A DNA stretch of 64,000 bases from a virus (lineage: Duplodnaviria > Caudoviricetes): positions 1,258 through 65,257 of the IMG/VR virus record IMGVR_UViG_2728369266_000003, one strand, 5' to 3'. Shown here piece after piece: positions 2,922-63,964 of this stretch. The position numbers and the translations under genes are program-made. The notes under the pieces were generated by a model. That model ran no database searches and had not been told where the DNA came from. It saw only the letters and a program-made list of their open reading frames with translations. The number at the start of each line of letters is the position of its first letter. Position 1 is the first letter of the stretch.

Positions 2922-3191
2922 GTGTGTGACCCGCATGCCGAAGAAATCGGCGCGCGCATCTCAGAACTCCTAGACGAGGGCTGGGACCTCAACCTCGAAA
3001 CCCTCAACGGGCGCCTGACCGTCCACCTCAGGCAGCACCCGCACACGTACACCGTCACCACCGGGCGCCATGACACCCTTCTCACGCAGCTCCGGAACCT
3101 TCGTGCATGGGTGAGTGAGCACGAGCGCCAACGCCTCCAGGAGGCGAAAGAGGCGTACCTGAAGGTTCTTGAACGATGGGGCCCGTTCTGA
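2922..3191 (+). CDS. Hypothetical protein
   Basis: ORF, TGATG coupling to next gene. Confidence 0.6.
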   Translation: MCDPHAEEIGARISELLDEGWDLNLETLNGRLTVHLRQHPHTYTVTTGRHDTLLTQLRNLRAWVSEHERQRLQEAKEAYLKVLERWGPF

Positions 3192-3769
3192 TGGCCGCCA
3201 TCGACAGCCTGATCACCACCGTCTTGATTCCCGCCGCTGTCGCGGTCTGCACCACACTTCTAGTGGAGTACTTCGCGAAGCCCTGGTTGGAGGCACGCAA
3301 GGAGCGCATCTTGGAGGCGCACCGCGCCCGGCGGGAAGCCGCCGCCGTAGGCCGCCGCATCTACTTCGACCTCGGCAGGTTGGAGGACCCTGTCCCCGAG
3401 GACATGCCAGAGCCGAACCGGACCACGCTCGTAAACGAGGTCAAAGCCAAACGCGAATCGATCCTGGCTGACAGCCGAGAACTCGAACGCATGCTGCCCC
3501 GCATCGGCGGCGTCAACGCGCTCACGCTGCTCATCGCGGCGAGAGTGATCGGGACAGTGCAAGGCACAGCGCTTTCCGATGCCTCAGACGCAAAGGTCGC
3601 CGAAGTGCGGGGGGCGGTGGGACCCCTGTTCGACTTGCTGGAGTTGGGGTGGTGGCGCCCAGGGTGGTGGCGCGCGTATTTCCGAGTGTGTGAAGCGCTG
3701 GGCATCGAGCCGCGGCTTGGTGCGCGCTTGGTCGAATTCCAGCAGGCGTCGAAGCCGCCAAAGCGGTAA
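3191..3769 (+). CDS. Membrane-anchored hypothetical protein
   Basis: N-terminal TM helix LITTVLIPAAVAVCTTLLVEYF. Confidence 0.7.
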   Translation: MAAIDSLITTVLIPAAVAVCTTLLVEYFAKPWLEARKERILEAHRARREAAAVGRRIYFDLGRLEDPVPEDMPEPNRTTLVNEVKAKRESILADSRELERMLPRIGGVNALTLLIAARVIGTVQGTALSDASDAKVAEVRGAVGPLFDLLELGWWRPGWWRAYFRVCEALGIEPRLGARLVEFQQASKPPKR

Positions 3770-3939
3770 CGCGGCAACTAGGCGATGCGTTCGACAGCCC
3801 AGGGTCCCCTGTGGGGTTCGCCAGCCGTTGGTGCACCTCGGACTGACCGCTTGCGCGCCCCAAGCCGACCTCCAGGGTAGCCTTCGGGGCCACACTTCGA
3901 GTAAGGCTGCATGTAGCAACGTCTGCCCAGGTAGAAGAC

Positions 3940-3964
3940 CTGGGCCAGTGAATCACTGGCCCAG
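3940..3964 (-). terminator. Hairpin just after recombinase stop
   Basis: Perfect 11-bp stem CTGGGCCAGTG / CACTGGCCCAG. Confidence 0.6.
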
Positions 3965-3966
3965 AT

Positions 3967-4986
3967 CTACAGACCGACGTTGCGCATGGCATTCTCCCGC
4001 CACCGGTCCACCGCCCGGATGTACCCCAACACCACAGGAGACTTCGGGTCCCACCTACCGTGTCGCGCGATCACCGACACCGGGACACCCGCCGCGTAGG
4101 CCACCGTGGCGCCACCCGCCCGCAGGCTGTGCGCGGTGTACCGGTCGGCCGACGGCACACCCGCCGCGACAGCGAGGCGCCGCACGGTCCGATTCACCGC
4201 CTCACCACCAAGACCGTCACCGATCCGCCCATGCCGGTCCACACTCCGCAGCAACCGCCCCGACGTGATGCCGGCCGCGGCGAGCAGGTTGATCCAGTCC
4301 CGCCACGCCTGCACGGGGTCAGTGAGCGGGTGGCTGCCGCGGGGGATGGCGGCGGTCTCGCCCTTGGAGTCCTTGTCCGTCTTCGACGTGCGGATGTGGA
4401 CATCGAGCCCTTCCGCGGCGAGCGTCACGTCATCGAAGGTGAGCGCGACCAGCTCCGAGCGGCGCCCCATGAGGGCGAGGCCGAGGACGAGTAGGAGCCG
4501 GTCGCGGACGCCGATGGTGGTGGTCTGGTCGCAGGCGCCGACCATGGCGCGGAGGGCGTCGATGGTGACGGGCGCGGACTGCTTCTGGTTGCGTTGGCCG
4601 TTCTCGGCGCGGGTCCGGCGGTAGCCGCGCAGGACCCTCAATGCGGGTGCGCTGTCGGGGTGGCCTTTGAGTCCGGCGGTGGTGTGGGCGCTGCGGATGG
4701 TGGCGATGGCCTGTTCGATGGTGGCAGGGGAGCGGTTGAGGTCGCACAGGTGGCTGGTGTACTCGGCGAGGGTCTGCGCGGTGGCGGGTAGGTCGACGCG
4801 TCCCTGCTCGGCGCACCACTTCCCGAAGGCTTCCCACTGGCGGCTGTACGCCTTGCGGGTGTTGTCGCGGACGCCGTCGAAGAGGCGGGCGCGGGTGGAC
4901 TCGGAGACGACGAAGTCGACTTCGGTGTGCTCGGGGAGCGCGGGGGGTTCGGTCGGGCTGGGTTCGAGGGCGGCTTCGTCGTTCAC
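3967..4986 (-). CDS. Cre-like tyrosine recombinase
   Basis: Catalytic R (GRRSEL), K (SKTD), HSLRAG, GRW, LGY; SAM-like N-domain; GGAGG SD. Confidence 0.92.
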   Translation of the reverse strand: MNDEAALEPSPTEPPALPEHTEVDFVVSESTRARLFDGVRDNTRKAYSRQWEAFGKWCAEQGRVDLPATAQTLAEYTSHLCDLNRSPATIEQAIATIRSAHTTAGLKGHPDSAPALRVLRGYRRTRAENGQRNQKQSAPVTIDALRAMVGACDQTTTIGVRDRLLLVLGLALMGRRSELVALTFDDVTLAAEGLDVHIRTSKTDKDSKGETAAIPRGSHPLTDPVQAWRDWINLLAAAGITSGRLLRSVDRHGRIGDGLGGEAVNRTVRRLAVAAGVPSADRYTAHSLRAGGATVAYAAGVPVSVIARHGRWDPKSPVVLGYIRAVDRWRENAMRNVGL

Positions 4987-5417
4987 TGGTCCTCCCACCA
5001 GCCACGCCGCTGCCACGCCGCGTCGAGCCGTTCCTGGTCGTCCATCACGCACCCGTGGATGCCGCCCGCACGGAGGGCTTCGAACCGGCCGGCCACCCAC
5101 ACCTGGTCGGGTGCGTGCAAGGCAAGGTCTGCCCACGCTTCGGGGCCCAGACGCATCGGGTCGCGGCGGTCGCCGCAGTCGCACGGGCAGTCGGGGATGG
5201 GGTCGCGGAGGATGTCGACGCCGTGGCATCGGTGGTGCCAGTGGCGGGCGCACGCTTCGCAGGCGTCTCGGGGGATGACGAACTTCGTCACCCAGGCGGG
5301 GGCCGAGCGGGTGACCGATACGGGTTCGGGGGCCGGTCGTATGGCGGGGGCGCGCTTCGGCCGGGGATTCGCGCTCCGGTGGATGCGGCGTCGGGCCGAC
5401 AGTTCGTCTTCGGTCAT
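4983..5417 (-). CDS. Cys/His-rich protein translationally coupled to recombinase
   Basis: CEACARHWHHRCHG...CPCDC; GTGA overlap with recombinase start. Confidence 0.6.
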   Translation of the reverse strand: MTEDELSARRRIHRSANPRPKRAPAIRPAPEPVSVTRSAPAWVTKFVIPRDACEACARHWHHRCHGVDILRDPIPDCPCDCGDRRDPMRLGPEAWADLALHAPDQVWVAGRFEALRAGGIHGCVMDDQERLDAAWQRRGWWEDQ

Positions 5418-8350: not shown

Positions 8351-8416
8351 CTCTACTCCTTGATCGGTGCCTGGTGTTCCGCCCCGCCCCGGGGAGCCCC
8401 GAGACGAGACGCAGCA

Positions 8417-8869
8417 TCAGGCCACGTCGAACAACGGCAACTGGGCATGGTGCACCTCGTGGACCTTCCCTGGAGTCGCCTCTCCTGGCACTGACCAGTC
8501 GATGACCGAAGGCGGGGCGAGCGGCCACGGCGCGGGCGCCTCGGCGGCGCACCACGCCTCATACACCGCCGCGTACTCCGACGACGCCAGCTGGGCGCGC
8601 AGCGCGGTATCCATGCGGGCGATCAGCGTGGCGTTGTCGGTGGCGAACCCCCATACATGGGAGAGCCCGCAGAAATTGCCGTGGTACCGGACCTGCTGGT
8701 CTGCGACGAACCGCAGGGTCCCGTAGTGCACGAACCGCGGCTCGATGGTCAGATCCGTAGGGGCGACCTGCTCCATCCACGACGGCGCGGAGGACGGTAG
8801 GCGCCGGTCTAAGAGAACGAGCAGGTCGTCAAGATCGCCCCACCCGATCCAGTGGATCGTGGTTCCCAC
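8417..8869 (-). CDS. Hypothetical protein
   Basis: GTG start after GGAGG. Confidence 0.65.
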   Translation of the reverse strand: MGTTIHWIGWGDLDDLLVLLDRRLPSSAPSWMEQVAPTDLTIEPRFVHYGTLRFVADQQVRYHGNFCGLSHVWGFATDNATLIARMDTALRAQLASSEYAAVYEAWCAAEAPAPWPLAPPSVIDWSVPGEATPGKVHEVHHAQLPLFDVA

Positions 8870-41449: not shown

Positions 41450-41468
41450 AACTGTGCGGCTAGTGATT

Positions 41469-41503
41469 GGCCCCGCATCTCTTCGGAGGTGCGGGGCCGT
41501 TTT
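41469..41503 (+). terminator. Intrinsic terminator ending late operon
   Basis: 13-bp stem, cUUCGg loop, T-tract. Confidence 0.9.
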
Positions 41504-41565
41504 CGTATGCCCACCTTGGGTTGCTCGTGACTCTGTCAAGCCCGCACGCCGGGCAGCAGCGGTCC

Positions 41566-42543
41566 ATGGCCCGGATCGAGCCGATGCTGGCGAAGCTCGT
41601 CGAGAAGATTCCCGAGCCGGGCGCCTGCCGGGGCGGCTGCCGCTACGAACCCAAGCTCGACGGCTTCCGGGCGCTCGGAACGGTCGCAGAGCGGGGCGCC
41701 GGCCTGACCTCCCGCACCGGCAAATCCCTGAGCGCGGTCTTTCCTGAGGTGCGCGATGCGCTGTTCGACCGGTTGCCGGAGTGCACGGTGGACGGGGAGA
41801 TCGTTCACTGGACCGGGCAGCGATTCGACTTCAACGCCCTGCTCAGGAGGAACGCGACCAGGGGCGGGTGGCGGGCACTGGAACTCGCCGCGCAGGAACC
41901 CGCCTACCTCATCGTGTTCGATCTTCTCGAAATCCAAGGTGAGTCGCTGCTGCGCCGACCCCTGACCGAGCGCCGTGGTCGCCTGGAGGAGGTCTTCGCC
42001 GACGTGCCGCGCCCGTCGCTGATCCAGCTCGGGATGCAGACCGCCGACGTGGAGGTGGCGCGGGAGTGGGTGGAGGCGCTGGGACCCCTCGGTGTGGAAG
42101 GTCTGGTGATCAAAGCCGCCGACGGGGCGTACACGCCCGCGAAGCGGGGCTGGTCGAAATGGCGGATCCGCGACACGATCGACGTGATCGTCGGCGGCGT
42201 CACCGGGAAGGCGACGTCCCCCCGCGAGCTGGTGCTCGGACGCTACGACACCGCAGGCAGGCTGGTGATCGTGGGCCGCTCCACACCGCTGCGCACCGCC
42301 GAGGCCGCCGACCTCGCCGGGCGACTCCACCCGGCCGGCCCACACCACCCCTGGCCGGAGACCCTGCCGCCCCGGTGGGGGAGCCGCACCCGCACCCGGT
42401 ATGTGCGGGTGCGCCCCGAGCTGGTGGTGGAGGTGTCAGCGGACGTCGCCCAGGACCAGGGGCGGATGAGGCATCCGGCCAGGTACGTCCGCCCCCGCAA
42501 CGACGTGGGGCCGGAGGACGTGCCAGTCGTCCCCGAACGGTGA
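41566..42543 (+). CDS. ATP-dependent DNA ligase (LigC-like)
   Basis: EPKLDGFR, VDGEIV, IVFDLL, EGLVIK; OB domain ELVVEVS. Confidence 0.93.
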   Translation: MARIEPMLAKLVEKIPEPGACRGGCRYEPKLDGFRALGTVAERGAGLTSRTGKSLSAVFPEVRDALFDRLPECTVDGEIVHWTGQRFDFNALLRRNATRGGWRALELAAQEPAYLIVFDLLEIQGESLLRRPLTERRGRLEEVFADVPRPSLIQLGMQTADVEVAREWVEALGPLGVEGLVIKAADGAYTPAKRGWSKWRIRDTIDVIVGGVTGKATSPRELVLGRYDTAGRLVIVGRSTPLRTAEAADLAGRLHPAGPHHPWPETLPPRWGSRTRTRYVRVRPELVVEVSADVAQDQGRMRHPARYVRPRNDVGPEDVPVVPER

Positions 42544-42546
42544 CGT

Positions 42547-42567
42547 TCGAACGCGTGTTCGTATCCT
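42547..42567 (+). promoter_or_regulatory. LexA box abutting -10 TATCCT
   Basis: TCGAAC-GCGT-GTTCGT (11/12 to consensus); ATG 6 nt after the -10. Confidence 0.7.
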
Positions 42568-42573
42568 GGGGTG

Positions 42574-42912
42574 ATGGCTCTCCCTGCCGGCTACCCGCGC
42601 CCCCAGCCGCCCCTGGACCCGCCCGCAGACGCGCCGCCGGACGCCGTGCGGGTCGAGGAGTTCGTGCCTGAGGACGTGGCGCCGTGGTATCCGCCTGGTG
42701 GGGACACGGCGGTGTGGGTGCGGACCGGCGGCGTCTGGCGGTATGGGTGGGTGCACGGCTGGAAGCGCCACCCGGGCGGGAGGTGGGGGGCGTGGATCGG
42801 GCTCGCGCACGTCGACGGGGAGCATCCGGCGGGGCTGTGGGCGTGGTGGTGGTGGGACGGGGTCAGCGTGCGGCGGCGGCAGTCGTCCGGCGCTGCGAGC
42901 ACTCCGCGATGA
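42574..42912 (+). CDS. Trp-rich SH3-like protein, probably leaderless and SOS-induced
   Basis: VWVRTGGVWRYGWVHGW...W. Confidence 0.7.
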   Translation: MALPAGYPRPQPPLDPPADAPPDAVRVEEFVPEDVAPWYPPGGDTAVWVRTGGVWRYGWVHGWKRHPGGRWGAWIGLAHVDGEHPAGLWAWWWWDGVSVRRRQSSGAASTPR

Positions 42913-42916
42913 TCAT

Positions 42917-42943
42917 CCGCCCTTGATCCACGCTCAAGGGCGG
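42917..42943. terminator. Hairpin between convergent units
   Basis: CCGCCCTTGA / TCAAGGGCGG. Confidence 0.7.
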
Positions 42944-43115
42944 GGTTCATCCTGGGGAGCTGGGCGGGTCAGTGCTCCACGAGTTCGGGGCGGTGGTGCT
43001 GGACGATCCCCTCCTCACCGGGGCGCTCACAGGGTGTCGTCCCAGCAGTCTTGGCACACGTCATCCCCGGTGATCGTGGACTCCATCCGCTCGGAGGCGG
43101 CCCTGTCCGGCCGGG

Positions 43116-44534
43116 TCACGCCGGGGCGGGTTCGGCGATCTCGGCGATCTCGTTGCAGAGCCTGCGCGAGGACCACAGGACCAGGCCGACCAGGTCCACG
43201 ACGTGGCTGTTGCTGGTTTCGTGGGCGGCGACCTTCATCGCCTGCTCCGCGGCGTCGGTCACGAAGGCGGTGAACAGGTCGACGGCCTGGCGCTCGGCGT
43301 CGTCGCCGCCGCGCAGCAGCCGCCGCAGGTCGTTCTCCCACTGCGGGCGGGCGGCGTCGACGGCGGCCCGCGCCGCTCCCGCCGCGACGGGTTCGCGGTC
43401 CCGCTGGTAGGCCTTCGCGGTGACCTCCCCGATGCCGTCCTCGGCCGTCTTCAGCATCGCGACCAGCCGCCCCAGGCGGGCGTGGGCGGCCGTCTCGGGC
43501 ACCAGCGCGGAGGCGGGCAGCGCGATCTCGCGGCGGGTGGTGTCTTCCACCGTCGCCCCGTGGAGGTTGGTGATCATCTCGGTGGTCTCCACCCCGATCA
43601 GTCCGTCCACGTGGTGGTGGCGCGCGGCCAGCCACCCCGCCACCGCCGGCGCGGCGTCGGCGTCTTCGTACAGGCCGGGGACGGTGAACTGCAGACCCCG
43701 GGCGCAGACCTCGCGGTGGCTCGCGCTGGCGGACTGGCCGCGCCCGATCAGCGGGTCGGGGTGGGACTTGAGGTCATCCCCGGCGCACACCACCACGGTG
43801 CGCACCATCCCGTCGTCGTCGCGAACCAGGCGGATGCGGCGGCTGGGCCAGCACAGGTAGTCCACCATCCCGGCCGGGGAGCGGTCCTTGCGGCGCTCGG
43901 TGACGGGCTCGGTGCGCTCCCACCAGCCCTCGCCGCGCGGCGCCTCGGCGCCGGGGGCGAGGTTGAGCAGCAGGGTGCGGCCCAGGTCGGGGCCCAGCAG
44001 CCGGGTGTGGGTGCGGCGCCCCACCGACCCCAGCGGCACCCCGGCCTCACGCCCGCCGCCGTGCTTGCCGCGGATGCCGCCGGTGTCATAGGCGTGGCAC
44101 CACACCAGCCACCGGGCCGCCTCGGCCGGACTCAGGGCGGTGGGGCGCGCCCAGGTCATCCCGCCGCCGCCGGCCCGCCCGTAGGCGGTGATCTTCTCCA
44201 CCGGGTTGAGGGTGCCCTCCACCGGGTCCTGGGCGAAGGGGCGGTCGGGGTCCAACAGCCGCCAGCGGCCGGCCCCGATGCGCTCCAGGGCGTCCAGGGG
44301 CAGCCCGCCCCGGTACAGGTCGCCCCACCGCCCATCGTCCACGGGCCCGCACAGGCGGTGGGCCACCGCCAGCAGCAACCGGAACAGCGCCACGGTCAGC
44401 GTGGGGTCCTCGGCGCATACGTCGCGGATCGCCCCGGCATCCTCCAGCGCCTGGCGCACCCCCACCTCCCCCACCCGCCCGTCGGCGTAGACCACCGGAA
44501 TCCACGGGTCGGTGAACAGATCCAGGTCACGCAT
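43116..44534 (-). CDS. cas8e: Orphan type I-E Cascade large subunit homolog (Cas8e/Cse1/CasA)
   Basis: DLFTDPWIPV, ALFRLLLAV, RPFAQ, LSPAEAARWLV..HAYDTGGI, LGRTLLLNL, YLCWPSRRIRL match Cse1 motif order. Confidence 0.85.
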   Translation of the reverse strand: MRDLDLFTDPWIPVVYADGRVGEVGVRQALEDAGAIRDVCAEDPTLTVALFRLLLAVAHRLCGPVDDGRWGDLYRGGLPLDALERIGAGRWRLLDPDRPFAQDPVEGTLNPVEKITAYGRAGGGGMTWARPTALSPAEAARWLVWCHAYDTGGIRGKHGGGREAGVPLGSVGRRTHTRLLGPDLGRTLLLNLAPGAEAPRGEGWWERTEPVTERRKDRSPAGMVDYLCWPSRRIRLVRDDDGMVRTVVVCAGDDLKSHPDPLIGRGQSASASHREVCARGLQFTVPGLYEDADAAPAVAGWLAARHHHVDGLIGVETTEMITNLHGATVEDTTRREIALPASALVPETAAHARLGRLVAMLKTAEDGIGEVTAKAYQRDREPVAAGAARAAVDAARPQWENDLRRLLRGGDDAERQAVDLFTAFVTDAAEQAMKVAAHETSNSHVVDLVGLVLWSSRRLCNEIAEIAEPAPA

Positions 44535-45006
44535 GGTCGGCCGCCCGCAGGACCGTGACGCCCTCGGCCTCGCCCTGGCGCACCCAGCCGCCCGCGGCGG
44601 CGTACCCGGCGGCTTTCAGCGCGGCGTCACGGCCGCGCCCGTCCAGCGCGATCACCTCCACCGACGCGGGGTCGTGCACACCGAACCCGTCGACGTCCAT
44701 GATGTGCAGCTCCTCGCCGAAGTCGTAGGCGACCCGCGTGACCTCGATGTCCTTCTTCATCTGCTGGTAGTCCCTCCAGATCTGGCTCAGCCGGGACTCC
44801 TTGAGGCCCAGCTCCTGCGCGGCGCGCCGCTGGGCGGCGGCCTTGCGGATGCCGAGCTGGCGCTCGACCTCCGCGCCGACGATGCGGGCCCGCTCGGCGC
44901 CGACGGCGTGGCTGACCTCGGCGGCGACCTCGGCGAGGACCCGCAGCCGCTCGGGCGCCTCCAGGGCGCCGATCGCCTCCCAGTCGATCGTGTAGTAGCT
45001 GCTCAC
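44527..45006 (-). CDS. HTH-containing protein with extra C-terminal domain (Aca-like position)
   Basis: QRRAAQELGLKESRLSQIW; 8-nt overlap with cas8e start. Confidence 0.75.
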   Translation of the reverse strand: MSSYYTIDWEAIGALEAPERLRVLAEVAAEVSHAVGAERARIVGAEVERQLGIRKAAAQRRAAQELGLKESRLSQIWRDYQQMKKDIEVTRVAYDFGEELHIMDVDGFGVHDPASVEVIALDGRGRDAALKAAGYAAAGGWVRQGEAEGVTVLRAADHA

Positions 45007-45359
45007 GCGTAGACCTCCTCCAACTCGTCCTCGGCGGCGTCGGCGTCTTCGCTGTCGCCGCCGACGGATGCCGCCCATGCGTCGCCCTCGGGGGTGCGGT
45101 GGGCGGGGCGGGCGTGCAGCACGGTGCCCAGGCGGGTCAGGGCGGCCTGGTAGAGGCGGGTGGCGATGCCCTCGCCCCGGTAGGGGGAGGCGGTCTCGAC
45201 GTTGGCGATCACCAGCGTGTCCATGGCCACGTACAGTTCCGAGGCGATCTGGCCGGTGTCGGTGCGGGCCTGGAATCGGTGGTAGTCGGTGGCCTCGCCG
45301 GGGTAGGGCGCGACTGCGTAGGTGATCTCGTAGGCGGTGCCGTGTGCGGTGATGATCAT
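45003..45359 (-). CDS. GNAT-family acetyltransferase with acidic tail
   Basis: IANVET..PYRGEGIATRLYQAA (acetyl-CoA motif A), RTPEGDAWA. Confidence 0.82.
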   Translation of the reverse strand: MIITAHGTAYEITYAVAPYPGEATDYHRFQARTDTGQIASELYVAMDTLVIANVETASPYRGEGIATRLYQAALTRLGTVLHARPAHRTPEGDAWAASVGGDSEDADAAEDELEEVYA

Positions 45360-45391
45360 CTGGCGCTCCCTGGTCCGTGCCGACACCCATA

Positions 45392-45420
45392 AATATAGTC
45401 CCGCTAAAGATTTTTGTCTA
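45392..45420 (-). promoter_or_regulatory. Housekeeping-sigma promoter for GNAT-HTH-cas8e operon
   Basis: TAGACA-N17-TATATT in an AT-rich patch. Confidence 0.75.
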
Positions 45421-45650
45421 GGGGGGCTACACGCGGGGTTGGACCAGGATGGTCAGCCGTCCGCCATGGGCGTCCGATCCGTCACCACACGCCCACTCCG
45501 TGCACCTATGCCGGATCTTTACCCGAGGTGATCTACCTCGGCGCAGCGCCGTCTGCCTATGCTCCAGATCCCCTCGCAGGGCGGCCCCCGGTGGGACGTG
45601 CAGGGCAGCCGCGCCAGGGAGCGCGTTCGGCCCCTTCTCCGGACGCGCAA

Positions 45651-45683
45651 CCGCCCCGGCCCACCTCTCCAGGGCCGGGGCGG
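45651..45683 (-). terminator. Terminator isolating upstream leftward operon
   Basis: CCGCCCCGGCCC / GGGCCGGGGCGG. Confidence 0.7.
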
Positions 45684-45693
45684 ACTTCACCAT

Positions 45694-46404
45694 CTACTCG
45701 TAGGGGTCTCGGTCATAGCCGGGGCGGAAGGTCACACCACGCTCCTGGATCATCTGACACACCTTCACCAGTGCCGCCCTCGCGTCGGGGGACGCGTCCC
45801 GGGTCATCGCGCGCACCTCGTCACGCAGGAAACGCCGCTCAGCCCGCTCGATGGACTCACTGTCTCGTAGGACCAGGGTGAGGATGTCAGCCAGCAGCGG
45901 ATCCTGCTGCTCTTCGGTCTGGCCGCATGCGATGGCGTAGTGGTGCAGGACCGAATCCACCAGCGTCTCGACCGCTGCCTGGCGGTCCCCTCTGGGGATG
46001 GGCCGCCCTGAGGGGCGGGGCCGGTCGGCCACCGCTCGTGCTCCGGGGTTAGCTTGCCGTTCCGTTGGGGTGATGGGGCGGGGCGGCAGGCCGCAGGCGG
46101 CCCGGATATGGTCTTCGCCGTCGCGGCACCACCAGCATTCCGAGGTGCAGCGCACCACCAGGTCGGGCGGGCCGGCCTCTGGTTCGTGGATGGCGCCGAC
46201 CCAGTACCCGTGTACGGTCCACCCGCCCAGCGGCGCCAGGTCATCCACCTGGGTGGGGACCGATTCGCCGTCACGGTGCAGGGAGTGCACCCACATCGGC
46301 TCGCGCCCCGGCCAGCGGAGCCACGTCCGGCCCTCGCGGTCGACCCGCGTGGCGACTGGGGCCAGAGTGGGGGTGTGCCAGAGGGCCACCGGGTGCCCAG
46401 TCAT
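45694..46404 (-). CDS. Hypothetical protein with CxxxCxxC...H...C motif
   Basis: ATGA coupling. Confidence 0.65.
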   Translation of the reverse strand: MTGHPVALWHTPTLAPVATRVDREGRTWLRWPGREPMWVHSLHRDGESVPTQVDDLAPLGGWTVHGYWVGAIHEPEAGPPDLVVRCTSECWWCRDGEDHIRAACGLPPRPITPTERQANPGARAVADRPRPSGRPIPRGDRQAAVETLVDSVLHHYAIACGQTEEQQDPLLADILTLVLRDSESIERAERRFLRDEVRAMTRDASPDARAALVKVCQMIQERGVTFRPGYDRDPYE

Positions 46405-46721
46405 AATGTGTGCTCCCATTCTCGTTCTCGCCCGCGCCGCATTTCGATCTTCACCCACTTGCCGGTGGACCTCCGCATGGACTGAACGTAGGCATACCCG
46501 TCTCGGAATTCGGTGCCGTTGGGTAGCACCAGCCTGAGGTTGACGGATCGGCCGATGTGGGTGGAGTCCCCACGAACCTTCCATCCCTGGACAAGGATGC
46601 GGTTGCGGCCGAGATCCACGGGCGGGTCGAACAGGTAGATGACTGTGCTGGTGCCATCGCGCCAGTACGCGGTGACCTCGCCGTAATGCTCCCGCTTGGG
46701 CTTGTCTGGTTGGTCGGTCAC
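46401..46721 (-). CDS. Hypothetical protein
   Basis: GGAGG SD. Confidence 0.6.
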   Translation of the reverse strand: MTDQPDKPKREHYGEVTAYWRDGTSTVIYLFDPPVDLGRNRILVQGWKVRGDSTHIGRSVNLRLVLPNGTEFRDGYAYVQSMRRSTGKWVKIEMRRGREREWEHTL

Positions 46722-47152
46722 GGGACCCTCCTCAGTGTGGCGCCACCGCAGCTCAGCAGATTCTCAGCGTCGTGGGACCCAGTTCGCTCCACCACGGGCT
46801 CGGCGATGTCTCGGTGGGTGATGGTGGTACGCCACGCCCCGAGTCGGGCCTGGAGTAGCAGCGCGACGCTGGGTGCCCGATGGCGTCCTCCAGCGCATCC
46901 GACCGCGACCCTCACATGACCTCCAGAAGGGCCGGACTGCATGGCGGCCACGGTCCGGGCCGTAGCGCGGATGAGGTGCGGGATGCCCGGGGTGTTGCGG
47001 ACAGCATCGCGCACGGCTTTGTCGTGGGCGGTCATGTAGCGGAGTTCAGGGGCTACATGCGGGTCCCGAAAGTGGTGGCGCAGGTCCACGGTGATGTGGG
47101 CGTCGTCGGGTGGTGGCCCGTGTAGGTAACCGAAGCTGATGATTTCAATCAT
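46718..47152 (-). CDS. RapZ C-terminal-like domain protein
   Basis: ISFGYLHG, DLR.HFRDP, VAVGCAGGRHR. Confidence 0.85.
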   Translation of the reverse strand: MIEIISFGYLHGPPPDDAHITVDLRHHFRDPHVAPELRYMTAHDKAVRDAVRNTPGIPHLIRATARTVAAMQSGPSGGHVRVAVGCAGGRHRAPSVALLLQARLGAWRTTITHRDIAEPVVERTGSHDAENLLSCGGATLRRVP

Positions 47153-47397
47153 GGCGACGCCTCCAGGGTGAGCTCGGGCGCCCCGCCGAGGGGCGCATAG
47201 AGGGTGATGGTTCCGCACCCGGTCGGACACGACGCACGGAGGGTTATGTCACCGCAGGCCGCGGTGCGGGACTGGAGTGTCCATCCGGACAGGCACCCCT
47301 CCAGGTGGGTGTGGGTGGCCCACTGGGGTTCGGGTGGGGTGGCGGGGGTGCCGAGGGTCTGGTCGGCCAGCTCGGCGGCCCTGTCCGCGGCGCTCAT
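47149..47397 (-). CDS. Hypothetical protein
   Basis: Coupled ORF. Confidence 0.5.
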   Translation of the reverse strand: MSAADRAAELADQTLGTPATPPEPQWATHTHLEGCLSGWTLQSRTAACGDITLRASCPTGCGTITLYAPLGGAPELTLEASP

Positions 47398-47981
47398 GCT
47401 GGCACCGGCACAGCCGCGGCCCGCTGCGCGATCCGCTTCAGGTCCGCCTTGGGGAGGGTGATGGTCCCGAGGTGGGTCAGCCAGTGGCACCACACCGGCT
47501 CCAGCCCCGGGTTCCGCTGCCACTCGTCCTCGGACACATCGCTGCGGGTGTAGGCGGCGGTCCGCTCGGCGAGCGTCTGGAGGGTGGCGGCGGTGACCCA
47601 GCGGGCGTCCCGCGTCTCCCCCTTCTGTGGGCGGAGTGGGTACCCCTCGAACACGGTGGCTTCGTAGATCCACCAGTAGTGCCCCGCCTCACCGGAGTGA
47701 CCGTCCGGCAGGTACTGGGACGGGCCGCACCGGTTGGGACGCCACCCCTCGGCGACGAGGCGGTAGTCACTGACCGTCTGCCCGACCTCCTCGCTGACTT
47801 CGAAGGTGAGCGCTTCCTCGGGGCCGTCGAACTCGTCGAAGACGTGGCCGGCGACGGGCGCGACCCCGCTGGGTCCGTCGCCGTCGCGGGTGATGACGAC
47901 GTACTCGGGGCCGTCGTCGCCGGGGCGGGTGATCAGGATTCCGACGCTGTGCTGGTCGCAGCGCCACGGGTCCTTGGGCAC
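47394..47981 (-). CDS. Nudix hydrolase (divergent)
   Basis: CDQHSVG, PVAGHV...EVSEEVG Nudix-box variant. Confidence 0.75.
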   Translation of the reverse strand: MPKDPWRCDQHSVGILITRPGDDGPEYVVITRDGDGPSGVAPVAGHVFDEFDGPEEALTFEVSEEVGQTVSDYRLVAEGWRPNRCGPSQYLPDGHSGEAGHYWWIYEATVFEGYPLRPQKGETRDARWVTAATLQTLAERTAAYTRSDVSEDEWQRNPGLEPVWCHWLTHLGTITLPKADLKRIAQRAAAVPVPA

Positions 47982-48104
47982 AGGATCCTCCTCACGGCGG
48001 CTGCCGTCGATGATGACGGCGCCCACCGACATGTGGGTGGGGGTGGACCGTCCGGTCCCCCCGTCCGCCCCACACACGTTGGGGCGGCGGAGGCACTGGC
48101 ACGG

Positions 48105-49499
48105 TCAGTTGGTGCTGTCGGCGGACGTGGCCTCGGGCTCCGGTGAGGACTCCAGCCACTCCTTCACGTACCGGTCGACGGTCGACTTCGGCACTTCGGT
48201 GAGTCGGCTGATCTCTCCGAGCGTCATCTTGATTCCAGCCCGGCGAGCTTCCTCGAAGCGGGCAACGACGCGCTGCTTGCGCTCGTCCCAGTCGTCAGGG
48301 ACGTAGTCCGGGATCTCGATTTCGGGGGTGTCCGACGTCTTGGTGGGACGCTTCGCCGACGCGGTCTTGGGACGGCTCGACGGCTTCCCGGCGGCCGGCT
48401 TGGGACGGTTGGTGGGACGGGGGGCACGGGCCGCGGTGGGACGCTCGGCCGGCGTCTCATCGGGCTCGGTGGGACGCGGCTGCGGCACCTCCGTGGGACG
48501 GTCCGCCAGCGTCTCGTGGGACGGTCCGGTGAGACGCCCCACGGGAATGGTTGGGACGGTCCCGTGGGACGTCCCATTCGGGGTGTGTGGGACGGGGGTG
48601 GGACGGTCGAATGGGACGGTCTCGGGCGCCGTCTCACGGGGCTCGTGGGACGCCTCTGTGGGACGGTCCGCCGCGTCGGCTGGGACGGTGCTGTGGGACG
48701 CCTTACCCGCCCGCCGTGGGACGGCCATGGTGTCTCGCTTCTCGGCAAGGTGCAGCAGCACGCTCGCCAACCCGAGCACCAGAACCGGCAGCACCGACAC
48801 GAAGATCACCACCGGGGTGGGGGCGCTCGTCGGCTGGGATTCCAACGACAGCAAGTGGTAGGCGGCCTGCCCGACGGCGCCGATCACGAGGGACCCGATT
48901 GCGGAGCACCACGCGAAAAACCGGGCGCCACCAGTGACGATGCCGGACACGGCCACGTAGAGGGCGATCCCGGCGTAAGCCTCGATGCCGAGCGGGAGGG
49001 TGATCGACAGGTCCACGACGAGTCCGCCGCCGATGCCGGGCAGCAGGTTGACGGGGCCGAATCCGGCGAGGCGGCCGAGGCCGACCCAGCCGCCCCAGAT
49101 GGCGACGAACGCGGATGCGGCGACGAGTCCGACGACGCCTCGGAGGGTGTAGAGGGTGCGCTTGCTGGGGCCGTGGGACGACCAAGCACCCGTCCCACGG
49201 GGCGTCTCGTTGCGGGCGGTGGGACGCGTCCCATCCGCTGTCCCATTCTGCGTCTCATCGGCCTGCGTGGGACGAGTCTCAGTGGCCGTCCCAGTGGGGG
49301 TGTGGGACGGCGTGTTGGGACGGTGTGGGGCGGTGCCGTTCGGCGGGTCGTGGGACGCCCCGTGGGACGGCTGAGCGGTGTCGGTGGGACGCCCCTGTGG
49401 GACGGCCGTGGGACGGCTGTCGGGGTGTCCCATGGGACGGTCGGCGGGACGCGCGAGCGCCGTCTGCGGGACGGTCCCGGGCGGCGTTTCGGCGGTCAT
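48105..49499 (-). CDS. Spread/DUF2637-like membrane protein with low-complexity flanks and C-terminal HTH
   Basis: About four TM helices (LPLGIEAY, SVLPVLVLG); TLGEISRLTEVPKSTVDRYV. Confidence 0.75.
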   Translation of the reverse strand: MTAETPPGTVPQTALARPADRPMGHPDSRPTAVPQGRPTDTAQPSHGASHDPPNGTAPHRPNTPSHTPTGTATETRPTQADETQNGTADGTRPTARNETPRGTGAWSSHGPSKRTLYTLRGVVGLVAASAFVAIWGGWVGLGRLAGFGPVNLLPGIGGGLVVDLSITLPLGIEAYAGIALYVAVSGIVTGGARFFAWCSAIGSLVIGAVGQAAYHLLSLESQPTSAPTPVVIFVSVLPVLVLGLASVLLHLAEKRDTMAVPRRAGKASHSTVPADAADRPTEASHEPRETAPETVPFDRPTPVPHTPNGTSHGTVPTIPVGRLTGPSHETLADRPTEVPQPRPTEPDETPAERPTAARAPRPTNRPKPAAGKPSSRPKTASAKRPTKTSDTPEIEIPDYVPDDWDERKQRVVARFEEARRAGIKMTLGEISRLTEVPKSTVDRYVKEWLESSPEPEATSADSTN

Positions 49500-49566
49500 T
49501 TGGATCTCCAATCTGGGACGGTGCGGCGGTATCCCACAGGGGTCGGGTGGGACGGACGGTGGGACG
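48345..49566 (+). repeat. About 34 polar GGGACG (mostly TGGGACGS) hexamers in two clusters
   Basis: Hand count: 18 in 48345-48723, 16 in 49175-49566; only a few reversed. Confidence 0.9.
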
Positions 49567-49567
49567 G

Positions 49568-49666
49568 TCAGAAGGTGATGACGCCAAGGCCGACGAGCAC
49601 GGCGAAGGCGAGGGCTGCGATCGAGCCGACGATGCCGATCAGGCCGAGAGTGGCTTCGAAGTCCAT
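49568..49666 (-). CDS. 32-aa single-TM peptide
   Basis: AAGGAG SD; MDFEATLGLIGIVGSIAALAFAVLVGLGVITF. Confidence 0.65.
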   Translation of the reverse strand: MDFEATLGLIGIVGSIAALAFAVLVGLGVITF

Positions 49667-49677
49667 GACGCTTCTCC

Positions 49678-50100
49678 TTAGCGGGAGCCGATGACGGTGA
49701 TGGCGGCCGCAGCAGTCAGCGCGACCCGATGAAATGCCTGGTCAAGGTGCATTCGTCCACCTCGATCCCAGAACGGGCGCTTCCCGGCGGCGTCGACCAG
49801 GGCGAGGGAGTCCTGCTGCCGGTCCATGTAGTAGTGCGTCGCAGCGGACAGGGCCTGACCTGCGACGATGCTGGTTGGGTGCAGGCCCAGCTTGAAGACC
49901 TGGTTGGCGAGCAGGACAGCTGCGGTCGTGGTCGCGGTGTAGCTCGCGACGTGGCGGGCGCACGCGGCCGCTCCGTCGGCGCCGGGCTTGCCCTTGACCT
50001 GGGCGTCCTCGTCGCGCTGCACCCAGAAGTCGCCCGCCTCGTGGGCGACGTTGAGGGCGGCGAGGGTCGCGGCGAAGGCGGCGACTCGGGCGGGGTTCAC
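49678..50100 (-). CDS. DUF3307-like membrane protein
   Basis: HEAGDFWVQ, RHV, HYYMDR, DQAFH. Confidence 0.85.
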   Translation of the reverse strand: MNPARVAAFAATLAALNVAHEAGDFWVQRDEDAQVKGKPGADGAAACARHVASYTATTTAAVLLANQVFKLGLHPTSIVAGQALSAATHYYMDRQQDSLALVDAAGKRPFWDRGGRMHLDQAFHRVALTAAAAITVIGSR

Positions 50101-50140
50101 TTCATCCTCCTGGTTGCTGTGTGTAAACCTGAACTATGGT

Positions 50141-50284
50141 TTGTCTCTTGTCTCACCCGGTCGCGGGAGAGGGGGTCTAGCGGCCTCTGAGGCGGCTATC
50201 TGACGGCTAAAATGCGGACGAATCGTGACAAATGGGGCGCGCGTGCTGAGACAACGGCAGGGTTTGTCTCAGCCCTTTGTCTCA
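50141..50284. repeat. TTGTCTC(A) repeat cluster, candidate clt
   Basis: Direct copies 50141, 50148, 50264, 50277; inverted copy 50247; just downstream of traB. Confidence 0.7.
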
Positions 50285-50301
50285 CTACGGAGAGTCACAT
50301 G

Positions 50302-52518
50302 TCAGGCGGCACGGCGCTCCCACAGGCCACGCTGACCCGCCACCAACCGCACCGTCCCCGCCTCCGCCAGCTCGTCCAGCGCCCGGTTCACGGTGGCCCG
50401 AGAGCAGCCGAGTTCGGCCCGAACCGCAGCCTCGATGTCGCCGCGACGCTGTGGACCGGCTGCGAGCACAGCGAGGATCGCGTCGCGGGCACGGTCCCGA
50501 TCCGACTGGTCAACCTCGACGAAATCGGCGACGTTCGGGAACGCCACCACCACACCCGCCGACGGACGAGGGGCGACCGACGACCCTTCGCCGAACAGCA
50601 GCTCGCGGACCCCGAGCTTGCCGCCGAGGAACGCCGTCACCGCGTGCGCATCCTCAGCAGCCCGCTGCTCAGCGGACCGGTCGTGGCGCCGCGAGTACAC
50701 CCCACCCAACGCGAGGTCCACCGCGCGGGCGGCCTCAGGCTCCAGGGTCAGCGACGGCCCGACCGCCTGGATAAGGGCGCCGAGGTCTTCGTGGTAGCCG
50801 GCACGCCACATCGCGCGCCGCGCCTCCACGCTCCCCTCGTTGGTGGTCTCGTTCGCGGCGATGCCGTACCCGCCACCCCGAGGAAGCTCAGTCACGCTCA
50901 TCGGCGCCTTGGGGGCGATGGCGCCCCCGATCGCGTCCTGGGAGTACATGAGCGCCACGTTCGCGCTGAACAGGTTTCCCCTGATCACGCGCCCGGGGTT
51001 GCCGTCGCCGCCGAACGCGCCCATCCCCGTGTCCTGCGACGCCGCGATGACCGCGACACCGCACTTGCGGCCGATGCGGGTGAGTTCGTTGACGAGTTCG
51101 GCGTTGGTCCAGGTGCCGAGTCCGGCCGGGTCGGCATCCTCGTCGAGGTGCTGTGCCTGCGGGTCGATCCGCCGGTAGTCCGACAGGATCGTCATGTGCG
51201 ACTCATCCAGGATCAGCACCAGGCCCGGCCTGGACGGTGTGGGGGTGAAGCCCTTGCGGCGCATGGCGCGGTTGGTGCGCATCCGAACCCGCAGCACGAT
51301 CACCGCCGCCTCCAGGGCGATGCGGCGCAGTTCAGCGGTGGCGGAGGCATCCCAGTCGGCGGTGTCCTGGAGTGCGGGCTGGGTACCCTCCTGCCCGTCG
51401 ACGTACCAGTAGATCGTGCACCCCGACATCCGCATGCCGAGCGCGAGCAGGTTCAGCAACTCGCTCTTGCCGGACTTCTGGGCGCCGAACAGATACCCAC
51501 CGAGCAGGCTGTTGGGACGGTACAGGCCCCAGGTGTGCATGCCGACCCCATCGGAGTGGGGGCCGACGGTGATGTCCCCGGTCTCCGGGTCGTAGACGGG
51601 ATGCCCCATGATCGTGGGCACCCCATCGACGACATCGACGGGCACGATTCCGGCGGTGGGGGAGGAGTCGGTGATCCGCAGCAGCGCCAACTGCGGAGAC
51701 TCCGAATCGTGCGGACCGACCGTGATCATCCGCTTGGGGACGTTCAGGGCGACACTGATCTCCGCCACCATGTGCTCCAGAGCCTCCAGACCCCGACCGG
51801 TGGGCTTGAAGTGGATGGTCCACTCCCGGCCGTACTCGGTCTTGGCCTGGTCCGACAGCCAACTCCCGGACGCGGCGCCGTTGCGGGAGCCGATGTGCTC
51901 GGCCCACAGCGCCGCGATGTCGTCCACCTGCACGGTGGACGACATCGCGGGGGTCTGCGGGTGGTGGCCGATGCGGTGGATGCGCCACCAGTGCGCCGCC
52001 AGCACATACACCCCCACCAGCCCCGAAGAGGCCAACACCTCCCACTGGTCGGTGAGCGCGGCGGCGATGAGCCACACCCACGCCGCGGCACCGACGAGCA
52101 GCGCCCGCAGCGGGTGCTCCCGCAGCCACACCCCGGCCTCCAGCAGCCAGCCCTTCTCGGCGCGGCGGATGAGCGCGATCGTGGTCGAGATGGCCAGCGC
52201 GGTACCGGCCGAGGTGACGAAGGCGTTCGCTTCGGCGAGCAGGGCGAGTTCCTGGATCAGCCCGATCGCGGCGACGGCGCCGGCCGCGAGCCACGGCTGG
52301 TACTGGAGACGCAGCCGACGCCGCATGGACTCCTCGTCCACCTGCCGCAGCCGGACGAATGCCTCACGGGCGCGCACGTGCGCGGGCAGCCGCTCGGACA
52401 CCGCCTGCTCGACGGGCGCGCGCTGCTTCGTCTTCGCGGCGCGAGTCGACGCACGCCGCAGGTCACGCTGGAAATCTCCGATCAGGTCGTCGACCTGGCG
52501 GCGGGTCGTGGTCGCCAT
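50302..52518 (-). CDS. traB: TraB-like FtsK/SpoIIIE DNA translocase
   Basis: N-terminal TMs, Walker A GAQKSGKS, Walker B LILDESH, GRKCGV..IAASQ, C-terminal winged HTH. Confidence 0.85.
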   Translation of the reverse strand: MATTTRRQVDDLIGDFQRDLRRASTRAAKTKQRAPVEQAVSERLPAHVRAREAFVRLRQVDEESMRRRLRLQYQPWLAAGAVAAIGLIQELALLAEANAFVTSAGTALAISTTIALIRRAEKGWLLEAGVWLREHPLRALLVGAAAWVWLIAAALTDQWEVLASSGLVGVYVLAAHWWRIHRIGHHPQTPAMSSTVQVDDIAALWAEHIGSRNGAASGSWLSDQAKTEYGREWTIHFKPTGRGLEALEHMVAEISVALNVPKRMITVGPHDSESPQLALLRITDSSPTAGIVPVDVVDGVPTIMGHPVYDPETGDITVGPHSDGVGMHTWGLYRPNSLLGGYLFGAQKSGKSELLNLLALGMRMSGCTIYWYVDGQEGTQPALQDTADWDASATAELRRIALEAAVIVLRVRMRTNRAMRRKGFTPTPSRPGLVLILDESHMTILSDYRRIDPQAQHLDEDADPAGLGTWTNAELVNELTRIGRKCGVAVIAASQDTGMGAFGGDGNPGRVIRGNLFSANVALMYSQDAIGGAIAPKAPMSVTELPRGGGYGIAANETTNEGSVEARRAMWRAGYHEDLGALIQAVGPSLTLEPEAARAVDLALGGVYSRRHDRSAEQRAAEDAHAVTAFLGGKLGVRELLFGEGSSVAPRPSAGVVVAFPNVADFVEVDQSDRDRARDAILAVLAAGPQRRGDIEAAVRAELGCSRATVNRALDELAEAGTVRLVAGQRGLWERRAA

Positions 52519-63905: not shown

Positions 63906-63948
63906 CTGGGGGTCAAGGGGTCGCAGGTTCAAATCCTGTCATCCCGAC
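63906..63948 (+). tRNA. 3' half of tRNA-Pro(GGG): att core (attR), not an intact gene
   Basis: CTGGGGGTCAAGGGGTCGCAGGTTCAAATCCTGTCATCCCGAC runs from anticodon loop to acceptor; no D-arm upstream. Confidence 0.9.
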
Positions 63949-63964
63949 AGGAAAGCAGCAGGTC

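Follow-up and report, generated by a model that had tools for sequence, protein, structure and literature searches.

Cas8e (Cse1), the large subunit of type I-E Cascade in CRISPR systems, is encoded by a stand-alone gene of a phage-like element of an actinomycete, and it is tentatively suggested here that the product, P0002, is a Cas8e-derived mimic which inhibits the Cascade of the host. The gene occupies positions 43116-44534, on the minus strand and with an ATG start, of a stretch of 64,000 nucleotides (IMG/VR record IMGVR_UViG_2728369266_000003, positions 1,258 to 65,257; hereafter the window) and encodes 472 amino acids (aa). The window is nearly the whole of contig C12 (65,257 bp; guanine-plus-cytosine content, GC, 68.5%). 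C12 and contig C18 (21,431 bp, GC 69%) overlap by 95 bp at both ends, with no contact with other contig ends, and thus form a circle of 86,498 bp, referred to below as the element. P0002 shares several traits with Cas-derived anti-CRISPRs: it is a homologue of a Cas subunit, its gene lies on mobile DNA away from any cas locus, it belongs to a clade of its own, and the host possesses the cognate type I-E system together with a spacer against the element (32 of 33 positions, with an AAN protospacer-adjacent motif, PAM).

The cas8e gene and its product

An earlier note on this DNA had assigned the reading frame to a Cse1 homologue; the open frame of 472 aa was confirmed, and the strand, absent from that note, is minus. 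The GC of its codons (0.96 at the third position, GC3, and low at the second) is typical for a real gene of this genome. All six Cse1 motifs named in the note are present in the order given there, namely DPWIPVV (residues 9-15), LFRLLLAV (50-57), RPFAQD (98-103), LSPAEAARWLVWCHAYDTGGI (134-154), TLLLNL (187-192) and WPSRRIRL (229-236). Profile searches agreed with the assignment above curated cut-offs, with Pfam CRISPR_Cse1 (PF09481) matching residues 5-416 at E 1.1e-51 and 176.9 bits (cut-off 24.7), TIGR02547 at 113.8 bits (cut-off 70.05) and four PADLOC Cas8e models above their thresholds, with E values down to 5e-51. An AlphaFold2 (AF2) model built on an alignment of 49 sequences (predicted local distance difference test, pLDDT, 80; predicted template-modelling score, pTM, 0.83) consists of a globular part at the N terminus and, toward the C terminus, a bundle of four helices (349-376, 381-406, 411-437 and 442-467). 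All 23 significant Foldseek matches of this model were Cse1/Cas8e chains, the best being 4H3T and Thermobifida fusca 3WVO (E ~1e-20, full length). By sequence and predicted fold, P0002 is a true Cas8e/Cse1. It had no match among PHROG profiles, and a search of a phage database returned two weak matches (27% identity) in unannotated gut phage records. Searches for related loci with P0002 alone gave no match in two collections; related loci were retrieved by querying with an alignment of the orphan clade described below.

The gene lacks the operonic type I-E context of a row with cse2, cas7, cas5 and cas6e and an array. A tblastn search with the seven Cas proteins of the host returned the P0002 gene as the only match in the window and no match on C18, and profiles for Cas7e, Cse2 and Cas3_HD had no match on C12 or C18. 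Neither contig holds a CRISPR array, nor a repeat-like unit at up to 7 mismatches. The statement that no other cas gene or array accompanies the gene thus holds for both contigs of the element.

An orphan clade on mobile DNA

The eight closest relatives of P0002 (34-52% identity) are encoded in Nocardiopsis, Nonomuraea and Actinomadura (Streptosporangiales), and the cas8e of all eight stand alone on plasmid or phage-like DNA. A linear plasmid of N. changdeensis (145 kb), which also occurs in strain MT53, carries one of them, and others adjoin integrases, an antitoxin or phage zinc-finger genes. A more distant orphan Cas8e is present in Glycomyces artemisiae (locus L086). Some 70 further, more distant matches had enough flanking sequence, and the row cas3-cse1-cse2-cas7-cas5-cas6-cas1 was found at all of these but two loci truncated at an edge. 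The possibility raised in the earlier note, that the homologues always lie within complete cas operons, does not hold for the closest ones.

A maximum-likelihood tree computed from 84 sequences places the eight orphans in a single, fast-evolving clade separate from operonic Cas8e, with a Shimodaira-Hasegawa-like approximate likelihood ratio test (SH-aLRT) value of 100 and a long stem. Its sister group (88) consists of the operonic Cas8e of two Nocardiopsis species (L019/L054) and of an acidimicrobial. Constraining all nine orphans together, including that of Glycomyces, gave scores above those of the free search and a p value of 0.76 in the approximately unbiased test (p-AU), which is weak evidence given the long branches; a single origin of the nine is not rejected by these sequences. 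The orphan proteins are 468-487 aa long, as compared to 528-575 aa for operonic ones. Cas7e is encoded elsewhere in three of five other orphan-bearing genomes. For N. changdeensis, no spacer against the orphan-bearing plasmid turned up in the arrays close to the two I-E loci of this species, and only repeat-like matches were seen.

Further observations were made at loci related to the clade. A diverged stand-alone Cse2/CasB is encoded a few kb from the orphan Cse1 in two Nocardiopsis elements (45% mutual identity; L012 16578-17096 and L110 on the N. changdeensis plasmid NZ_CP074136.1, 106868-107386; L010 161-670), and none was found on the element of the window. The N. changdeensis plasmid also carries solitary units matching the host I-E repeat at 23 of 29 positions (101812-101840 and 97346-97374; L116 and L115), of which only the unit at 101812 has an intact stem-loop; one such unit lies 64 nt past the stop codon of the orphan casA on the same strand. 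The chance rate of repeat-like units is ~0.2 per 86 kb in a control at up to 7 mismatches, and is expected to be lower at the 6 used on the plasmid; the units could be terminators, array remnants or repeat mimics. The N. synnemataformans element (L010) contains, at 2967-5330, a second stand-alone pair without cas7, cas5 or cas6, made up of a Cse1 of 662 aa (67% identical to the host Cas8e on contig C9) and a truncated Cse2 of 118 aa (66% identical to that of the host). A group of IMG/VR viral contigs (L095-L104) hold the row cas6-cse1 (412 aa)-cse2-cas7-cas5, mostly with cas1, and cas3 was not detected on them; as judged by gene content, these are phage-borne I-E-like sets without nuclease.

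Regions altered in the orphan clade

The roles of the regions of Cas8e are taken from published work (PMC5965380, PMC6546366), and residues were mapped onto the E. coli protein by anchoring on the conserved motifs, a mapping which is approximate at ~15% identity. The orphan clade keeps 48 of the 118 positions that are conserved at 80% or more in operonic Cas8e, nearly all of them in residues 1-255, and the remaining 70 have diverged. The functional motifs conserved in operonic proteins are deleted or replaced across the whole clade. In loop L1, four residues are deleted clade-wide, including the arginine aligned with E. coli Q132; F129-Q132 of E. coli contact the 5' handle of the CRISPR RNA (crRNA) (PMC5965380, PMC6546366). 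The residues GAVGDP are deleted from the glycine-loop region, which reads the PAM (PMC5965380, PMC6546366). The segment Y.P..H...R..W, 15 residues long in the host protein and aligned with E. coli 276-307, is also missing from the orphans, and E280 and loop 288-294 of E. coli are proposed contacts of Cas3 (PMC5965380, PMC6546366). At the tip of the wedge, YG.Q of the operonic proteins is replaced by [YHW][RG], with the wedge hairpin retained. The arginine aligned with E. coli K474, which acts as a latch onto Cas7 and flipped target bases (PMC5965380, PMC6546366), is lost, and all conserved positions of the C-terminal bundle are changed.

The altered regions differ in how well the orphans keep them. 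Identity in the glycine-loop region is 0.61 within orphans, 0.64 within operonic proteins and 0.33 across the two groups, and the corresponding values for L1 are 0.46, 0.37 and 0.17; among the parts of the orphans it is the bundle that evolves fastest, with a within-clade identity of 0.23. The ratio of nonsynonymous to synonymous substitution rates (dN/dS) was estimated by the Nei-Gojobori method, which is crude at a GC3 of ~0.96 and was used only for comparison with operonic pairs treated alike. It was 0.31 and 0.59 in two orphan pairs and 0.17-0.56 in eight operonic pairs whose identity is similar or lower (49-72%), with 0.17-0.37 in the five pairs at 66-72% identity. As judged from these ratios, which are below 1, the orphans are under purifying selection, weaker than that acting on operonic Cas8e.

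Type I-E systems and spacers of the host

The host genome assembly (98% complete, 0.16% contamination) contains a type I-E row on contig C9 that encodes Cas3 (981 aa), Cse1 (549), Cse2 (225), Cas7 (397), Cas5 (235), Cas6 (240) and Cas1 (317). For sequencing data, one DNA run is listed, probably the one behind this assembly, and no RNA run. Its frames are open throughout and of canonical length, and the operon is apparently intact. Nine arrays of I-E type and one of another type are dispersed over the genome. Spacer 2 of the I-E mini-array at C7:423211-423341 matches the element at C18:18237-18269 in 32 of 33 positions. On the strand identical to the spacer, the protospacer is flanked by AA and then C, that is, by an AAN PAM, which works for the type I-E system of S. 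avermitilis (PMC12231136). The single mismatch is at position 11-12, outside the seed, and the protospacer sits between divergent cI-like and cro-like genes. The survey of the host thus found both things that the earlier note had looked to it for, a type I-E locus and a spacer of this type against the element. A targeting spacer that resides together with its target is a classic sign of an inhibitor, and a host I-E system with a near-perfect spacer and AAN PAM is what a decoy or anti-CRISPR would predict.

Other imperfect spacer matches to the element (25-27 of 33 positions) were set aside as probably due to chance or old; the flank of the 27/33 match is GA followed by C, not AA. A protospacer at window 8391-8420 corresponds to spacer 14 of the non-I-E array at C5:309487-310671 (34 of 37 positions, with mismatches at positions 1, 4 and 35), the 30-nt repeat of which ends in ...GGAGGGATCGCAAC. 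The host also has a second row, Cse1 (533 aa)-Cse2-Cas7, at C1:618500-624700, in the vicinity of which Cas3_HD is absent. The Cse1 of this row has diverged strongly (branch length 3.4) and clusters with one encoded on a viral contig of IMG/VR (L094); the row may be a Cas3-less derivative of type I-E.

Candidate function as a subunit mimic

It is proposed, with a confidence a little short of even, that P0002 is a Cas8e-derived subunit mimic and an inhibitor of the host type I-E Cascade. The conserved N-terminal core would let P0002 occupy the large-subunit seat, which is peripheral in Cascade, at the end of the host complex where Cas5e and the crRNA 5' handle lie. As the L1 motif, the glycine-loop insert, the glutamine wedge tip, the 15-residue segment aligned with the Cas3 contacts and the basic latch of the bundle are lost, a complex bearing P0002 would be unable to complete PAM-dependent DNA opening and/or to recruit Cas3, and P0002 would in this way protect the element from the matching host spacer. 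The deletion or change of elements for PAM reading, DNA opening and Cas3 docking in proteins that keep the N-terminal core fits such a mimic. The interpretation as a decoy put forward in the earlier note is thus partly supported, and we infer that P0002 would bind Cascade and inhibit interference. Because the orphan clade has conserved some of the loops that face DNA in an altered version, a dead decoy and a reprogramming subunit are indistinguishable at this level.

Several observations weigh against an inhibitor of the host complex. P0002 and the C9 Cas8e share 32% identity, over the first 320 residues only, and P0002 is 26% identical to the C1 Cse1, and at these values it is not a recent copy of either. 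The host Cas8e is placed elsewhere in the tree, beside a Streptomyces protein, and is not sister to the orphans. With 32% identity and a sister relationship to another I-E lineage, the fit of P0002 to host Cas5e and Cas7 is uncertain, and the shortened L1, which also docks into Cas5e, could weaken assembly. The conservation of L1 and the glycine loop in a new form fits altered function better than simple loss. Cas7e was not seen in two of the five other orphan-bearing genomes. Neither of the two genes upstream of cas8e was found beside the orphan cas8e of other elements, the neighbours differing between orphan loci, and no known anti-CRISPR (acr) or anti-CRISPR-associated (aca) gene adjoins cas8e. 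Finally, the host I-E system may be silent, and the spacer and the element, the latter being assembled as a circle of its own, may not occur together in every cell.

The Cas8e fold could instead have been recruited for a task unrelated to CRISPR, such as the binding of DNA or of phage or host proteins, possibly together with a co-transcribed GNAT acetyltransferase and a 159-aa protein. The translational coupling of cas8e to these two upstream genes under one promoter, the genomes without Cas7e and the strongly diverged C-terminal half are in keeping with this explanation, which is nevertheless unlikely, as the upstream partners are missing from all other orphan loci, so that cas8e travels alone, the best-kept parts of the protein are the core motifs of its own family, and both type I-E and a matching spacer are present in the host. 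It is decidedly unlikely that P0002 is a working alternative large subunit, which would join the host Cascade and alter its output, for instance by another PAM preference or by a failure to recruit Cas3 in the manner of CRISPR interference (CRISPRi), and which would be used on the element's own genome or on rival elements. Such a subunit would account for glycine-loop and L1 regions that are conserved within the orphans yet different from operonic ones, for a wedge hairpin kept with a conserved aromatic residue or histidine followed by an arginine or glycine tip, and for the loss of the segment aligned with the proposed Cas3 contact; the diverged stand-alone Cse2 of two Nocardiopsis elements and the location of the matching protospacer between cI-like and cro-like genes point the same way. 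However, the element has no array or repeat unit to supply guides of its own, conservation within the clade is lowest in the bundle, the part that acts with Cse2 in locking the R-loop, and the role is without experimental precedent. Still less probable is a more specific version, in which the orphan clade would be, instead of a dead decoy, a replacement large subunit owned by the elements. With conserved yet distinct loops toward the crRNA handle and the PAM, and no segment for Cas3 docking, it would make the Cas7/Cas5/Cas6 backbone of the host a Cas3-blind DNA binder for the benefit of the element, including at the element's own cI/cro intergenic region, the site of the host spacer match, and in some Nocardiopsis elements it would operate with the stand-alone Cse2 and the solitary repeat-like units.

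A functionless leftover of a degraded I-E locus that was once on a mobile element would find a source in the plasmid-borne I-E systems of actinomycetes (15 other plasmid casA matches) and a parallel in the recent-looking pair of Cse1 and truncated Cse2 in L010. This is very improbable in view of full-length open frames kept by eight or more elements, which come from three families and share 34-52% identity, of dN/dS values below 1 and a GC3 of 0.96, of a unit with its own promoter and flanking hairpins, and of a clade that is monophyletic and old.

Relation to known Cas-derived inhibitors

The concept of Cas-derived anti-CRISPRs is already published, and P0002 is a good candidate for an inhibitor of this kind. 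Katz et al. established the concept and listed 358 orphan viral cas genes, with eight cas8e entries in Table S3 (10.1101/2023.06.24.545427). In Listeria, AcrIB3, a homologue of Cas5 (38% identity), and AcrIB4, a homologue of the C-terminal domain of Cas8b, become part of a Cascade that is defective (Katz et al., 10.1101/2023.06.24.545427), and this mechanism corresponds to the one proposed here for P0002. P0002 resembles these two in being a homologue of a Cascade subunit encoded on a mobile element outside a cas operon, in forming its own clade at ~30-40% identity to the host subunit, and in the presence of the cognate type I system in the host. It differs from them in system and in part: AcrIB3 and AcrIB4 belong to type I-B and comprise a Cas5 homologue and a homologue of the 90-residue C-terminal domain of Cas8b, whereas P0002 is a full-length type I-E large subunit from an actinomycete. 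AcrIB3 and AcrIB4 were demonstrated experimentally to enter Cascade and stop DNA binding, whereas the corresponding activities of P0002 are predicted ones. The prophage cas8e entries of Table S3 include Glycomyces artemisiae CGMCC 4.7067 (L086) and Allonocardiopsis opalescens DSM 45601, 45755-45027 (10.1101/2023.06.24.545427). The latter is probably the same gene as that of P0002, because its span equals residues 13-255 of P0002 in C12 coordinates, where the gene is at 44373-45791 on the minus strand. Table S3 gives bare cas8e entries, without clade analysis, motif comparison, host spacer match or test.

P0002 shares its fold and the core motifs of residues 1-255 with canonical Cas8e/Cse1 (T. 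fusca 3WVO, A. ferrooxidans 4H3T and E. coli CasA). It is, however, 60-80 residues shorter, with deletions in L1, the glycine loop, the Y.P..H...R..W segment and the start of the bundle, its wedge tip and bundle positions are changed, and its gene is beside neither cse2 nor cas7. AcrIF3 is a structural mimic of Cas8f that blocks the recruitment of Cas2-3 (described in Katz et al., 10.1101/2023.06.24.545427). The likeness to P0002 lies in the idea of an inhibitor with the shape of a large subunit that acts at nuclease recruitment; AcrIF3, in contrast, is a small protein that binds the nuclease and whose sequence shows no detectable homology to that of Cas8f, whereas P0002 is a clear homologue without the segment aligned with the Cas3 contact.

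To our knowledge, the proven Cas-derived inhibitors belong to types I-B and VI-A and none of the demonstrated inhibitors of type I-E derives from Cas8e itself; the I-E anti-CRISPRs that we know of are small, unrelated proteins. The host and element offer a natural test bed, as a single culture contains the targeted element, the complete I-E operon and a near-perfect spacer whose PAM is usable. It can be read from the orphan clade which parts of Cas8e are removable while the putative seat-taking core stays, which bears on Cascade assembly, on the hand-over to Cas3 and on the origin of anti-CRISPRs from cas genes, and an inhibitor of this type could explain the apparent inactivity of type I-E in some actinomycetes studied genetically.

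The element and the cas8e transcription unit

The phage genes of the window include a tyrosine integrase, a large terminase (TerL), an SPP1-type portal, a P22-type coat protein and a tape measure protein with an NlpC/P60 domain, and C18 adds a divergent pair of helix-turn-helix (HTH) genes (cI/cro-like) as well as a Dam-type methylase and another integrase. An attP-like site at window 63906-63950, at the right end of C12, is identical over 45 bases to the 3' end of the host tRNA-Pro(GGG) on contig C4, and the host attB copy of this tRNA appears unoccupied. With its phage structural genes, its immunity region, its separate circle, its attP-like copy and the apparently unoccupied attB of the host, the element is temperate and phage-like and was assembled in excised form. 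The earlier note was thus right in calling it a prophage as to kind, although not in the literal sense, since C12 and C18 form a separate circle and attB seems free. At the left end (C12:1-95), a 95-mer inside a gene for a protein resembling single-stranded DNA-binding protein (SSB) recurs without a difference on host contig C3; stretches shared with the host at the ends of C12 probably broke the assembly.

The cas8e gene is predicted to be the last of a three-gene unit (GNAT acetyltransferase, 159-aa protein and Cas8e) with its own promoter (Table 1), the only promoter-like site in 42400-50400, where shuffled sequences gave a mean of 0.3. Matches of gene A to Pfam GNAT families are below threshold (Acetyltransf_CG, E 4e-4; Acetyltransf_1, E 2e-3), and it resembles viral and actinobacterial GNAT clusters by atlas features (0.97) and by structure (template-modelling score, TM, 0.73). 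Gene B belongs to no Pfam, PHROG or PADLOC family and has no homologue among 5.8 billion proteins. Its atlas leads, at 0.80 or below, are toward small viral HTH proteins, its single-sequence fold is poor (pLDDT 48), and an HTH is only a lead; it is not similar to the orphan Cse2 of Nocardiopsis. An acr-aca operon would comprise its own promoter and an HTH autoregulator (Aca) beside the inhibitor gene; here a predicted promoter and translational coupling were seen, together with weak HTH leads for gene B, and an assignment to that type would be tentative. The hairpin upstream of the promoter is a putative insulator of the unit from the preceding gene. The GC of the unit (window 42000-46000) is ~74%, with a GC3 of 0.93-0.96, like the host chromosome (~74%) and unlike the remainder of the element (68.5%), which suggests that the unit is a cassette acquired from a high-GC source.

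Table 1. Features of the cas8e unit and its surroundings, in window coordinates.
Feature	Position	Strand	Basis and remarks
Predicted sigma-70-like promoter, TAGACA-17-TATATT	45392..45420	-	10/12 positions; AT-rich patch just upstream of gene A
Gene A, small phage-type GNAT acetyltransferase	45003..45386	-	127 aa (GTG 45386) or 118 aa (ATG 45359)
Gene B, 159 aa	44527..45006	-	GTG start overlaps gene A stop (GTGA); stop overlaps cas8e start (ATGCGTGA)
Stand-alone cas8e/cse1 gene (P0002)	43116..44534	-	PF09481, TIGR02547, PADLOC Cas8e models, AF2/Foldseek, orphan-clade membership
Hairpin upstream of promoter	45651..45683	-	-35.9 kcal/mol, z -3.95
Hairpin, 10-bp stem	42917..42943		Between the convergent cas8e unit and plus-strand ligase/113-aa genes; -24.6 kcal/mol, z -3.9

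Convergent with the unit is a plus-strand gene for an ATP-dependent DNA ligase (window 41467-42543), and Nonomuraea maheshkhaliensis (L013) encodes a ligase 46% identical to it at a distance of ~7 kb from its orphan Cse1. Upstream of the unit, on the minus strand (window 46718-48077), are genes for a protein with a RapZ C-terminal domain (PHROG 18111, E 3e-50) and a NUDIX hydrolase, followed by one for a 468-aa protein with a weak C-terminal HTH. On C18 (19728-21374; L107 1729-3375), a 548-aa integrase-like protein carries a LacI-type HTH (E 4e-12) between the N-terminal and catalytic parts of the integrase.

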